A DNA stretch of 64,000 nucleotides from Eledone cirrhosa. Its lineage: Eukaryota. Location: NCBI GenBank assembly GCA_964016885.1, contig OZ024755.1, forward strand, positions 24,800,001 through 24,864,000, given 5' to 3'. A model generated the notes under the pieces. The model was not told where the DNA came from, did not search any database, and saw nothing but the letters and a program-made list of their open reading frames with translations. Of this stretch, positions 23,984 through 37,996 are shown piece by piece. Numbering within the stretch: the first letter of the stretch is position 1; each line of letters begins with the position of its first letter. The translations under genes and the position numbers were made by a program.

Positions 23984-23990
23984 ATGGAAG
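23984..23990 (+). CDS. Gene B candidate first coding micro-exon (Met-Glu + G)
   Basis: aacATGGAAG|gtgagt is a consensus donor at 23991. Phase 1 matches the 24991 acceptor, and there is an in-frame TAA just upstream. A different upstream exon cannot be excluded. Confidence 0.45.
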
Positions 23991-24659
23991 GTGAGTGTTA
24001 CGTGATGATAATAATTTTTGTTTAATTTAATTGAAGTTTGATTTAATTTACACAAAAATTAAGACAGGAAATGGCTGGGTAAGTGATTGATAAGTAGAGG
24101 AATACCTACCTCTACTTATCAATCACTTAACCCTGGTAGGTATTCAGGGAACAACATCCTTGGACTATTAATACCATCCCTCCCTAATGGAGTCGTAGAG
24201 ACGCCGCCATGACACACGGCGTGCCTTAGTCATTTGAAACCTGCAGCGGCAATTCCTCCTCCGCACGTTTCTGTATGATTGCAAAGCAAACGTCTTGAAT
24301 ATTTGGCCACAGTTAGTACGATGTCATTAATATAGGACATTATCTAGTTTACCTGGCTATGAACCAAAGAGTAAATGGTTTTCTCTGTGGAAGGGGGGAG
24401 TCAAATGCAACAGCTCACTCGATAAAAAAAAAACATTCGTTAATTTTAAAATAGTCCTCCTATTAACAGTATTGAGTTACATAACACGGTTCTCACCTCC
24501 CTCCAACAGCACATATGTACAGCTGCTTTGACCGGGTGGAGAAATAAATCATCCTTTGACAAACCTTCAATTTTCTGATTAATACCTAATCACATTATCC
24601 ATCAATGGGTCAAAGGATGATTTATTTCTTCACCCGATCTAAGCAGCTGTACATATGTG

Positions 24660-24900
24660 GTGTTGGAGATCCACAGGTAGACTCCGAATAAGATGGTTGG
24701 ATAACATCCATGAACATGGCTGGTCTCGCTTGGGGATCCAGTCGGATCAGTTGGAAACTGTTGCTTCTGACTTGACCCACTGGAAATGGTGTTTGAGGAC
24801 TCTTCCCTCACGACCATCTCGGGAATAAGTAGGCGAAGAAGAAGAGGAAGAAGAAGAAGAGGAAGAAGAAGAGGAAGAAGAAGAGGAAGAAGAAGAAGAG
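24660..24900 (+). mobile_element. RTE LINE 3' end with (GAA/GAG)n tail
   Basis: Homologous to 3100-3290 (agatggttggataacatccatga...); ends in a gaagaagaggaagaa tail. Confidence 0.8.
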
Positions 24901-24990
24901 TGTTGTAAGGAAGGGCACACATGATACATATATGATTATAAACTCATTCATATATGTTTATTAATAAATCTGTTTCCATTTTACTTTCAG

Positions 24991-25295
24991 TGGATGATGG
25001 CGGAGCCCATTTTGAGGGCTGGTCGATAATTGGAAGATTGCCCACAAAATTTAACTCTGTGTTTATTTGTACTTCGGCAGGAGTTTTCTTCCTACTATTC
25101 ATAATACTCCTTATGTGTAAATGTTGGTTGGTCCAATGTGGGAGAAATAATCAGCTTGCATCATCCCCCGAACAAAATCAAAGAAGAAATAATCCAATAC
25201 CTCTTGTTATACCATCAATCAACATATCGATTATATCAAAACCGACTTTGCAAACTGTAGAAAATGGTGAGAAATACTATTTAGCAGCTGCTTGA
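24991..25295 (+). CDS. Gene B terminal exon: single-pass membrane protein ending in ...GEKYYLAAA
   Basis: Acceptor ttttactttcag|TG (phase 1). Reads (V)DDGGAHFEGWSIIGRLPTKFNS-VFICTSAGVFFLLFIILLM-CKCWLVQCGR...PTLQTVENGEKYYLAAA*. AATAAA at 25410. C-terminus is homologous to gene C. Confidence 0.8.
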
Positions 25296-26324
25296 GACAA
25301 CATAATATTTTACAAAAACACAAACATACAACACAAGATAAAAATGATACAAAGCCTAACAATTGTATAAGGGACCCACGTCTTTTATTTTACAAATATG
25401 TCAACTGACAATAAATAACAGTGGAATTTATCCTCGCTGGTCATGGTACTGTTAAACAAAATGAAACGAAAAGGCGCCAAAGGGCATTCCGAAACCTAGA
25501 TATTTCCAATTATATATATATATATATATATAGTCGATCGATTTTCGTCACATCGACGAAACAATGGTTCCATTGGTCTTTCCAATTGCTAATACTATCT
25601 ATCGGTCGTAACTTCAGGTAGAAGGAGCAACGTGAAATAAAGTGTCTTGCTCAAGGACATAATGCATCGCCCGGTCCGGGAATCTAACTCACAACCTCAT
25701 GATTGTGAATCCAATTCTCTACCTACTCAGCCGTGCGCCTTCAAACTATAAATAATTGTAAATAATTAGAAATATGAAATGAAAAACAAACTTTTCGGGT
25801 GTACTCTGTTCTTAAACTTAGCCCTTACTAAACTGTAATTCTAACTCCAACTTCTAAACTTAACACATACTAAATCACTAAAATACTCACCAAATGGTTG
25901 ACGCCTTAGTGGGAGGATTTCAACAGGCGATGGACTGCTGTACATCACATATATTCAGTTTTAACAAAATTAGGTGATCTAGATTCAATGCGAAAACAGA
26001 TCAAACCAGTTTAGGGTTTAACACTGAAATGGCGGATTCTAGTCGCTTATTCCAGGATCACAGAGGAACCTGAATTTAGTTTATTTAGACAACTGGACCA
26101 CTCGTTGTATATACAGGGTAACCACTGCGTACAACGGTGTATATTACATAATCCATGCTGGCTATTTTCAGCTCTGTAAATGTATAGTTAAGTCTTTAAT
26201 GGTAAGGGATAAATAGATTGTAAGTTATCTCTGACATCTTAATATGTTCATGGCTATAGCAAGTCTCAGATTTGAGAAGATGCTACACAGTAAGTCTATT
26301 CAGTGCTTATTCATGAATATTATA

Positions 26325-26615
26325 GGCAGTGTCTTTAATTAGAAATATGGTAACAAAAGGGTTAAGTACATAGACAGTGTCTTTAATTAGAAATATGGTA
26401 ACAAAAGGGTTAAATACATAGGCAGTGTTTTCATTAGAAATATGGTAATGAAAGGGTTAAATACATAGGCAGTGTCTTTCATTAGAAATATGGTAATGAA
26501 AGGGTCAATGACATTGGCAGTGTCTTTAATTAAAAATATGGTAATGAAAGAGTCAATGACATTGGCAGTGTCTTTAATTAGAAATATGGTAATGAAAGGG
26601 TCAATGACATTGGTG
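26325..26615. repeat. 48-bp minisatellite, about 6 copies
   Basis: g(g/a)cagtgtctttaattagaaatatggtaatgaaagggt.aa recurs at about 26325, 26373, 26421, 26468, 26516 and 26564. Confidence 0.9.
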
Positions 26616-35939: not shown

Positions 35940-36400
35940 ATATATGTATGTATATATGTATGTATATATGTGTGTATGTATATATCATATATATATATAT
36001 ATATATGTATATATATATATATATATATATATATATATATATATATATATATATATATATATATATATATATATGTGTGTGTGTGTATATATATATATAT
36101 GTGTGTGTGTATATATATATATATGTGTGTGTGTATATATATATATGTGTGTGTGTATATATATATATGTGTGTGTGTATATATATATATGTGTGTGTGT
36201 ATATATATATATGTGTGTGTGTATATATATATATGTGTGTGTGTATATATATATATGTGTGTGTGTGTATATATATATATGTGTGTATATATATATATAT
36301 GTGTGTATATATATATATGTGTGTATATATATATGTGTGTATATATATATGTATATATATATATGTGTGTGTGTGTGTATGTATATATGTGTATATGATA
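35940..36400. repeat. (TA)n/(TG)n compound microsatellite
   Basis: Alternating TA and TG runs; source of the YIYI/VCVC ORFs. Confidence 0.95.
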
Positions 36401-36409
36401 TATATGATA

Positions 36410-36995
36410 TAACACCTGCAACCCTGATGGTATCCAATGATGTTGACTTGTTCTTCTTTTTGGTAAATATCATCTTGGTTAAGAGAGTGGGACTGGCTTT
36501 GTGCAGTGCCTTTGCTCACTATCAAAGCTTCACGTCACAGGCATTGCTTTATATCTGGAGATCTCTCTGCACTTGTCGTCAAATGGTACCATGGGCCCAG
36601 CACTATGTGTCAGTAATTGTCACAAGTGTAATGTTTGTACCAGAGTTTTCAAGTCGCTGGCTGGACTAAAAGTCACACTCGTTCAGCGCATCGGTAGGGG
36701 TTCTCCTACATGGATATAAAGTAGTGGCCGTACTCGAAAACGAGTTGGCAGCCACCATGTATATATGTATGTATGTATATATGTATGTATATAGGAAAAT
36801 GTATGACCCCGGCGGCAGAGCTCAAGCCGTTACTACGGCTATTTCTGGGAAAAAGCCCAGAAATAGACGTCGAAACGGCTTGAGGTTTTCCCTTTGGGTC
36901 ATACATTTTCCTATTACCCACTCTACTACCCTAAGTATTGAGTACTCTGGTGCGTTATGGTCCATCTGGTTCCTTACCACAACTCCTTTGTTATG
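36410..36995. mobile_element. Modular microsatellite-flanked element family, third copy
   Basis: Shares modules with the 18283-19000 and 19981-20763 copies. Internal inverted repeat ataggaaaatgtatgaccc / gggtcatacattttcctat at 36791-36914. Confidence 0.7.
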
Positions 36996-37340
36996 TGTGT
37001 ATATATATATGTATATAATGTATGTATGTATATATGTATGTATATATGTATGTATATATGTACGTATATATATGTATGTATATATATGTATATATGTATA
37101 TATATATTTATATATGTGTATATATATATATATATATATATATATATATATATATATATATATTTATATATGTATATATATATTTATATATGTGTATATA
37201 TATATATATATATATATATTTATATATATATATATATATATATATATATTTATATATGTATATATATATTTATATATGTGTATATATATATATATATATA
37301 TATTTATATATATATATATATATATATATATATATATATA

Positions 37341-37575
37341 TGATAAAAATAGTCCTTCGTCAGTGATTTTCCAACCATCATTGGTATTTCATCGCATTAA
37401 AAATCATATACCTCAGGTTGGTGCGAGCAATAACTAAAAAAAGTTATTGGGACCAGTAAATCGCGTAAATAACTTTTTTTAGTTATTGCTCGCACCAACC
37501 TGAGGTATATGATTTTTAATGCGATGAAATACCAATGATGGTTGGACAATCACTGACGAAGGACTATTTTTATCA
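37341..37575. repeat. Inverted repeat with ~108-bp arms, flanked by (TA)n
   Basis: 37341-37448 is the reverse complement of 37468-37575 with about one mismatch and a 19-nt spacer. Confidence 0.92.
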
Positions 37576-37625
37576 TATATATATATATATATATTACTAT
37601 TTTCTTTTCGGTGGTGTCTTTACAG

Positions 37626-37996
37626 CTGAAGCAAGAAGTGTATTCCTCCTGATAGATGACATGAAACGAGACTTGCAATGCAATCCACACTGCAATATTA
37701 ATAACGAAACAATTTCAAGTTCTGCTGATGTGAGTGATAATACAATGTCAATCATGATGATTGTCGGTATTATTTCATTTATAATAATATTCATCTTGGG
37801 AGCAAGAATCGTAATGCCGGTGATAATTAAATATTTACGATATTCACGAAACCAAGAGAATGTCGAGATGTTTACCGATGCTATGGAATTGGACAACATC
37901 GGCGAAGAACAATCTTTAAACACAAAGGGAACACAACAAATTCCTCAGTTGGCTACAGTAAGAAAGGGGGAAACATATTTATTGGCTGCAGCTTAA
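37626..37996 (+). CDS. Gene C terminal exon: single-pass membrane protein ending in ...GETYLLAAA
   Basis: Acceptor gtctttacag|CT (phase 1). Reads EARSVFLLIDDMKRDLQCNPHCNINNETISSSADVSDNTMS-IMMIVGIISFIIIFILGARIVMPVII-KYLRYSR...PQLATVRKGETYLLAAA*, with an N-glycosylation sequon (NET). Joined protein is 144 aa. Confidence 0.8.

Follow-up and report, generated by a model that had tools for sequence, protein, structure and literature searches.

What does it mean that two small genes in tandem, whose products cannot otherwise be aligned, end in nearly the same 17 residues? This question is raised by a 64,000-nucleotide stretch of the genome of Eledone cirrhosa (NCBI GenBank assembly GCA_964016885.1, contig OZ024755.1, positions 24,800,001 to 24,864,000 of the forward strand; hereafter the window, to which coordinates refer unless stated otherwise), in which two such genes, here called B and C, lie on the + strand. 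A sequence-only reading of the window had interpreted them as single-pass membrane proteins that arose by an old duplication and share a selected C-terminal motif, and had placed that motif in the cytoplasm. Three lines of evidence described below, namely the orthologues of each gene, the invariance of the tail among them and the charge that follows the membrane helix, support this proposal. Comparison of the available sequences indicates that the tail is under selection and is far more conserved than the rest of the proteins, and B and C are likely to be ancient paralogues, a tandem of small single-pass membrane proteins acting as adaptors.

The terminal coding exon of gene B (24991-25295) ends PTLQTVENGEKYYLAAA-TGA and that of gene C (37626-37996) ends PQLATVRKGETYLLAAA-TAA, such that the shared motif together with its stop codon occupies 25242-25295 (+) in B and 37943-37996 (+) in C. 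Every element of the original tail observation could be reproduced: in the final 17 residues B and C agree at 11 positions, at 8 of which the codons differ synonymously, the stop codons differ (TGA in B, TAA in C), and both exons are preceded by a phase-1 acceptor. Over the 17 tail codons the two genes agree at 14 first, 12 second and 5 third positions, and the ungapped flanks of the tails are identical at 23/100 and 25/100 positions, so the third-position identity of the tails (5/17) is at background. Third codon positions are thus saturated, which excludes recent gene conversion as the source of the likeness. The composition-based chance of at least 11 matches is 5e-11 per pair and, among 8045 stop-terminated 17-mers in 264 kb, the best match apart from self and partner is 5/17. 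A free local alignment of the B and C exons gives a less extreme result (score 50, reached by 5 of 5000 shuffles). Without their tails the exons have no significant alignment (144 of 5000 shuffles attain their score of 33), in agreement with the earlier statement that the remainder of the proteins could not be aligned.

In the genome as a whole (3.0 Gb, 1796 contigs), the pattern GExYxLAAA-stop has two matches, both of them at this locus, and none in a reversed control. The looser pattern LxTVxxGExY matches 43 times, as against 113 times in the reversed control, and none of the loci viewed in frame (22 of the 30 fetched) continues into xLAAA. Other searches also failed to reveal a third paralogue: when the genome was searched with single proteins, solely the self match appeared below E 0.2, and profiles run over 10704 frames in the 264 kb found B and C as their sole matches. 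A pattern scan of metagenomes gave 56 matches, none of which was confirmed.

Relatives of both genes exist in Octopus. From a profile of both exons searched against 1.84 billion representatives, we obtained four matches at E <=0.001, two of which are real (P0002, C type, and P0003, B type); the other two are long repeat proteins in which a short outer stretch was matched (E 1e-4), and were rejected. Word-based searches added P0001 (B type; 1 of 68 candidates) as well as P0006 and P0007 (C type; 5 of 4513 candidates in all). The orthologues of B are A0A0L8HK16 of Octopus bimaculoides and CAI9720592.1 of O. vulgaris; those of C are XP_014771686.1 (LOC106870194) of O. bimaculoides, XP_029635397.1 (LOC115210799) of O. 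sinensis, and an unnamed Logan protein. The Octopus records of both genes are listed as uncharacterized or hypothetical. The Octopus orthologues have the helix at the same position and the same tail, and are 45-56% identical to the window's exons; they differ in that the O. vulgaris B model carries 68 extra N-terminal residues, and this start, like the divergent starts of the C models, may be an annotation artefact. B and C each have their own Octopus orthologue, and the duplication is therefore older than the split of this species and Octopus. The same 11 of 17 columns are invariant in all seven sequences (3 B, 4 C), which share the consensus P-x-L-x-T-V-[ER]-[NK]-G-E-x-Y-[YL]-L-A-A-A at a free C-end, and the motif thus persists in related species. 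Between the window and the Octopus-type orthologues, 14-16 of the 17 tail residues are identical, as against 37-50% of the body (Fisher p 1e-5 to 0.012).

Among annotated or called proteins of squid, cuttlefish and other molluscs, where a lone 17-residue motif would not reach significance, no relatives were found. A word-based search with the C exon alone retained none of 15 candidates and, because it missed known relatives, is not exhaustive. As far as searched, then, the family seems to be octopod-restricted. The suggestion that it is lineage-specific and unannotated accordingly stands within that range for its first half, whereas predicted Octopus orthologues were already present in databases. 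Its members match no family when compared with Pfam, structures and named proteins, and the earlier reading had not recognized one either. Against Pfam the window's C exon fell below every cut-off (LST1, TMEM52, TMEM154, TMIE, Stannin and ECSCR were considered), and the best E-value among the seven members was 0.00085 (DUF6249, 19.7 bits against a cut-off of 33). Sequence searches of the PDB gave no significant match, and the look-alikes found in the Atlas all scored <0.9 and were mutually inconsistent. A faint resemblance to a strand of the Ig I-set (E 8.2) was rejected. Queries by accession, motif and topic, the last of which covered listings and the starts of abstracts, returned no literature on the family, and three supplements of an octopus brain atlas (PMC9712504) contained no match for it. 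The family and its motif therefore appear to be undescribed; small single-pass adaptors that act by short motifs are, as a type, familiar.

Gene B is a real spliced gene. The sequencing runs examined, X1-X4, belong to a single study; the library type of X4 is unrecorded, and we took X4 as RNA because it holds a spliced joint and leaves the intron empty. In this run a 677-nt contig of depth 44.4 joins exactly 23990 to 24991, between GT..AG ends, which is the junction that the sequence-only reading had predicted, and depth is zero over 24014-24669 within the intron. X2 and X3 cover the intron continuously and do not contain the joint. Exon 1 (23923-23990, +; 66 letters on the short side of the X4 joint) comprises 5' untranslated region (UTR) and seven coding bases, beginning with the ATG at 23984 and ending at the phase-1 donor GTGAGT; the exon probably starts near 23856, since the contig has 133 letters ahead of the joint. 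The intron that X4 skips (23991-24990, +; 1000 nt, GT..AG) closes with the phase-1 acceptor TTTCAG at 24990, and the terminal coding exon behind it (24991-25295, +) is supported both by X4 and by the orthologues. The 3' UTR (25296-26300, +) extends at least to 26300, as judged from X4 contigs at 24989-25500 (depth 44.4) and 25692-26300 (depth 70.4), and presumably continues across the repeat at ~25550-25735. A minisatellite of ~42-nt units (26330-26620) lies just past the mapped end of this UTR. The start codon has a strong context (A at -3, G at +4), and five codons before it stands an in-frame TAA. The 5' region also contains two upstream open reading frames, one at 23870 (21 codons) and one at 23977 (6 codons), the latter of which overlaps the B start and stops just past the splice junction. 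The whole B protein has 103 amino acids, no signal peptide and an outer part of ~26 residues.

The terminal coding exon of gene C (37626-37996, +) holds 122 full codons and TAA behind the phase-1 acceptor TTACAG at 37625, and its transcript evidence consists of a single X4 contig inside the coding exon (37723-37881, 159 nt) at the low depth of 2.6. Run X1 gave no sequence on this exon, which carries no weight either way. As modeled from the sequence at the outset, the C protein has 144 amino acids, a predicted first exon included. This candidate first exon (30134-30197, +) would encode a signal-peptide-like segment ahead of the phase-1 donor GTAAGT, and is one of 14 candidates that combine an ATG with a phase-1 donor; its best 8-mer hydropathy is 2.6. 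Compared with the 11 N-terminal residues modeled for O. bimaculoides, it ranked best of 12366 windows (score 25, next 20), and a DNA-level version of the same comparison did not single it out. The C models in Octopus databases have a different N-terminus, in which ~28 starting residues read through what is the end of the intron in this genome: 11 of their residues match the last 33 bases of the C intron here, and the motif in which these 11 end is plain acceptor consensus. Because the hydrophobic core of that start is weak (1.4-1.6 versus 2.6 for the candidate exon), the Octopus C models may indeed read through the intron end. Between runs of TA, 47 nt upstream of the C acceptor, there lies a near-perfect hairpin of 237 nt (37342-37578, unstranded), with 127-nt arms that are 99% complementary. 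It belongs to a recently active, high-copy family resembling miniature inverted-repeat transposable elements, for which 1248 candidates were counted genome-wide and, among the 40 scored, many matches on many contigs were 99-100% identical. The hairpin falls outside the protein as first modeled, yet offers an in-frame ATG to the C exon.

Both proteins have a single helix. The transmembrane helix of B (25059-25124, +; hydropathy 2.77; pLDDT 83-96 over residues 21-50) is followed by the juxtamembrane motif CKC, a predicted palmitoylation site that is found in 3/3 B and 0/4 C sequences. In C the helix core (37745-37801, +; hydropathy 2.78), which may run ~8 residues further, has a net charge of -3 before it and +3 after it. 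Net charge is positive behind the helix in all seven sequences, and the tail is therefore predicted to be cytoplasmic. In C the outer part is ~40 residues long; its CxPxC is invariant, and it carries N-glycosylation sequons in all four C sequences. AlphaFold models of the two proteins, built on shallow alignments of 5 and 7 sequences (pTM 0.34 and 0.27), are confident in the helix, which is the sole structure in either; pLDDT is <50 over most of both tails, and neither tail contains a strand.

The linkers between helix and tail contain putative phosphatase motifs, which we regard as leads. In B the predicted motif LVIP-SINIS (25203-25229, +) is like calcineurin LxVP/PxIxIT sites, judged by the residue classes commonly used for them; the three B sequences compared have PSINIS, PSISIA and PSFSIS at the PxIxIT-like stretch, such that the pattern PxIxI[TS] is seen in 2/3, with Ala in the third, and a match of this type arises in 7686 of 200000 shuffles (3.8%). 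At about the same place in the C linker is LxxIxE (37889-37906, +), strict in 4/4 C, which would be of the PP2A-B56 docking type; it is a sequence-level match in a region of low pLDDT, and occurs in 3.3% of shuffles. The stretch in B, which has the LxVP-like one ahead of it, is the looser of the two. LxxIxE is described as the PP2A B56 motif in PMC8786283.

Since the tail is predicted to be disordered, lies at the very end and has stayed near-invariant while the rest of the two paralogues diverged, we interpret it as a docking motif, quite probably one for a cytoplasmic partner that both proteins need. Motif resemblance points to a possible identity for this partner: we assign a probability of roughly 0.35 to B and C being cortical adaptors with a common FERM-type (ERM-type, membrane-to-actin linker) anchor and differing phosphatase inputs. 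PMC3155308 gives ERM-binding motif-1-alpha as RxxTYxVxxA, which is bound in the form of a short beta strand and a single turn of 3-10 helix. A conservative form of it, KxxTYxLxxA (K for R, L for V), makes up the last ten residues of 4/4 C sequences and is found in 0/3 B; this pattern appeared in 113 of 200000 shuffles of the C cytoplasmic part. The core YxLxxA is present in 7/7 tails. Like the radixin FERM ligands ICAM-2, CD43 and PSGL-1, the window's proteins are single-pass and carry [RK]xxTYx[VL]xxA (all C) or YxLxxA (all B) on the cytoplasmic side. Unlike those ligands, with which they have no sequence homology, they bear the motif at the very C-terminus, a long way from the helix, and lack a large adhesion ectodomain; moreover, C departs from the motif by two conservative changes and B has the core alone.

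The proteins would lie N-out/C-in. If the partner is of the FERM type, the tail would fold only on binding, with ExYxL adding a short beta strand to the partner and AAA a terminal turn, in the manner of FERM ligands. Each copy would, after the duplication, have retained the common anchor and acquired inputs of its own: in B the predicted palmitoylated CKC, the calcineurin-like site and the absence of a signal peptide, and in C the glycosylated outer part with its Cys pair and the PP2A-B56-type site. The pair would then bring different phosphatases to the same cortical site. A bolder version, which we think decidedly unlikely, would make this an octopod-born pair with a new 17-residue docking motif, forming a two-state cortical scaffold on one linker, in which calcineurin (calcium-gated) is set against PP2A-B56 as a lineage-specific phosphatase switch.

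Several findings weigh against the reading of B and C as paralogous adaptors with a FERM-type anchor and phosphatase inputs. The strict form RxxTYxVxxA occurs in 0/7 sequences; B has N in place of the basic residue and K/E in place of the Thr, and the part common to B and C is only YxLxxA, which 3.6-5% of shuffles give. The invariant upstream P-x-L-x-T-V and G-E are left unexplained by the FERM motif. The tail begins 35-47 residues past the helix window, and known ERM ligands have their motif near the membrane. All of these motifs were picked after the sequence had been viewed, and the shuffle rates, including the 3.3% for LxxIxE and 3.8% for PxIxI[TS], are uncorrected for that choice; 18 of 39 columns of the C linker are invariant anyway, and at the sixth position of PxIxIT one of the three B sequences carries Ala. 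Finally, because the bodies of B and C have no significant alignment, whole-gene duplication is argued from the tail, the adjacency of the genes and their shared exon phase.

That same lack of alignment is what would be expected if the shared tail were due to chance or to recent gene conversion between unrelated open frames. This explanation is scarcely credible given the odds of 5e-11 per pair, the saturated third positions, and the retention of the tails in separate orthologues of each gene. It is somewhat easier to imagine, if still improbable, that a single gene uses B and C as alternative last exons, with the 7 coding bases at 23984-23990 joined to either phase-1 acceptor. Both acceptors are of phase 1 and the join to C is in frame (MEAEARS...); the first exon of C is a candidate, and the Octopus models of C disagree with this genome on its 5' structure. 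However, Octopus databases contain separate proteins with distinct starts (MDA.., MEV..), the signal-peptide-like exon at 30134 has a good donor, and X4 joins exon 1 of B to 24991 alone, in an examined stretch that excluded the C exon.

Other explanations accept the paired genes and assign the tail a different role. A shared partner without a FERM domain, such as a lineage-specific or hitherto unassigned domain that accepts beta strands, is the most plausible of them, although we consider it doubtful; all 17 residues would then form one new motif, perhaps an NG/KG beta-hairpin. The 11 invariant positions span the full 17 residues, beyond any single known motif tested, and the columns suggest that a 2-residue NG/KG hairpin register would put L3, T5, E7, E10, Y12 and L14 on one face; yet the AlphaFold models, shallow as their alignments are, place no strand in either tail, and the partner cannot be named. 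That the tail acts as in transmembrane adaptors of the LAT, PAG or LST1 type, with phosphorylation of its invariant Tyr drawing in an SH2- or PTB-domain protein downstream of a receptor, seems to us unlikely. B does have the architecture of the palmitoylated adaptors (LAT, NTAL, PAG, SCIMP and LST1), with a single helix behind a tiny outer part that lacks a signal peptide, a juxtamembrane Cys motif and a disordered tail with a Tyr, features that accord with PMC4861716; the Tyr is invariant in 7/7, and LST1 of Pfam gives a weak match on the helix (E 0.15, far under the cut-off). However, these adaptors bear several Tyr motifs (PMC4861716) and only one Tyr is invariant here; none of the tails matches YxxPhi or NPxY, there is no homology above cut-offs, and the ~40-residue outer part of C is predicted to be glycosylated, has a Cys pair and is not accompanied by a juxtamembrane Cys motif. 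The earlier comparison of the Tyr-containing tail with adaptor or receptor-like microproteins is kept as regards the adaptor, but phospho-Tyr is just one option, and the FERM-binding motif fits better than the sorting and Tyr motifs tested. Less likely again is a turnover or sorting signal, either an Ala-rich C-end degron for Pirh2 or KLHDC10 or a trafficking signal, by which the proteins would be short-lived or share a compartment. Three terminal Ala stand at the free C-end in 7/7, as in Ala-rich degrons recognized by Pirh2 and CRL2-KLHDC10, and PMC10591846 describes an end of this kind in TRAPPC11, three Ala behind a bulky residue, that destabilized GFP via Pirh2/KLHDC10. The same paper reports, though, that binding required at least 4 Ala and that bulky residues at -4 lost much or all affinity, and here -4 is Leu; the A/S-X-A-A rule, as stated in PMC10148881, is broken, all seven sequences ending L-A-A-A. 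Conservation extends 14 residues further upstream, including eight invariant residues ahead of AAA that a degron does not require, and no YxxPhi, [DE]xxxL[LI] or DxxLL match is found in the tails that would mark a sorting signal.

The surroundings of B and C are dense in microsatellites and mobile-element remnants, and of 519 filtered frames in the vicinity, the 150 longest gave solely mobile-element-type or sub-threshold matches in Pfam. The last exon of XPF/ERCC4 (L022:2508-2858, +), which matches human XPF at E 2e-14 and lies ~17 kb before the window, provides a synteny anchor. Another small single-pass gene, D, lies ~740-340 bases before the window start (L023:9264-9660, +) and is single copy in the genome; it has a phase-1 acceptor, a Ser/Thr-rich outer part, a helix and a short tail that ends EKYTLL, in which Tyr-x-x-Leu (YTLL) is a signal of the lysosome type. 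A further small single-pass open frame, gene A, is found at 1831-1547 (-). With B and C these make four small single-pass genes within 40 kb, and comparison of A and D with B/C revealed no detectable kinship (hhalign probability <1%). At 54600-55500 and 62400-63370 (-) there is a decayed retroelement of the RTE type, with a PHD finger, in two near-identical copies. On another contig, a PTPN14/PTPN21-like gene (L084:787-3249) carries a whole FERM domain and a PPxY region in one uninterrupted frame of 1161 codons; the ERM gene of this genome is divided among small exons.

Cephalopod-restricted genes are known mostly as lists of 'uncharacterized' models that lack a functional handle. In B and C, paralogues and orthologues have changed at least half of their residues and kept 11 of the last 17, a natural mutagenesis, and the tail consequently offers both a bait peptide and ready point mutants for a partner search. 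Should the FERM-type reading be true, with a FERM partner and real phosphatase sites, the pair would show in compact form how short motifs can make new signaling adaptors in an invertebrate lineage; with a partner of another kind, the tail would be a new binding motif.

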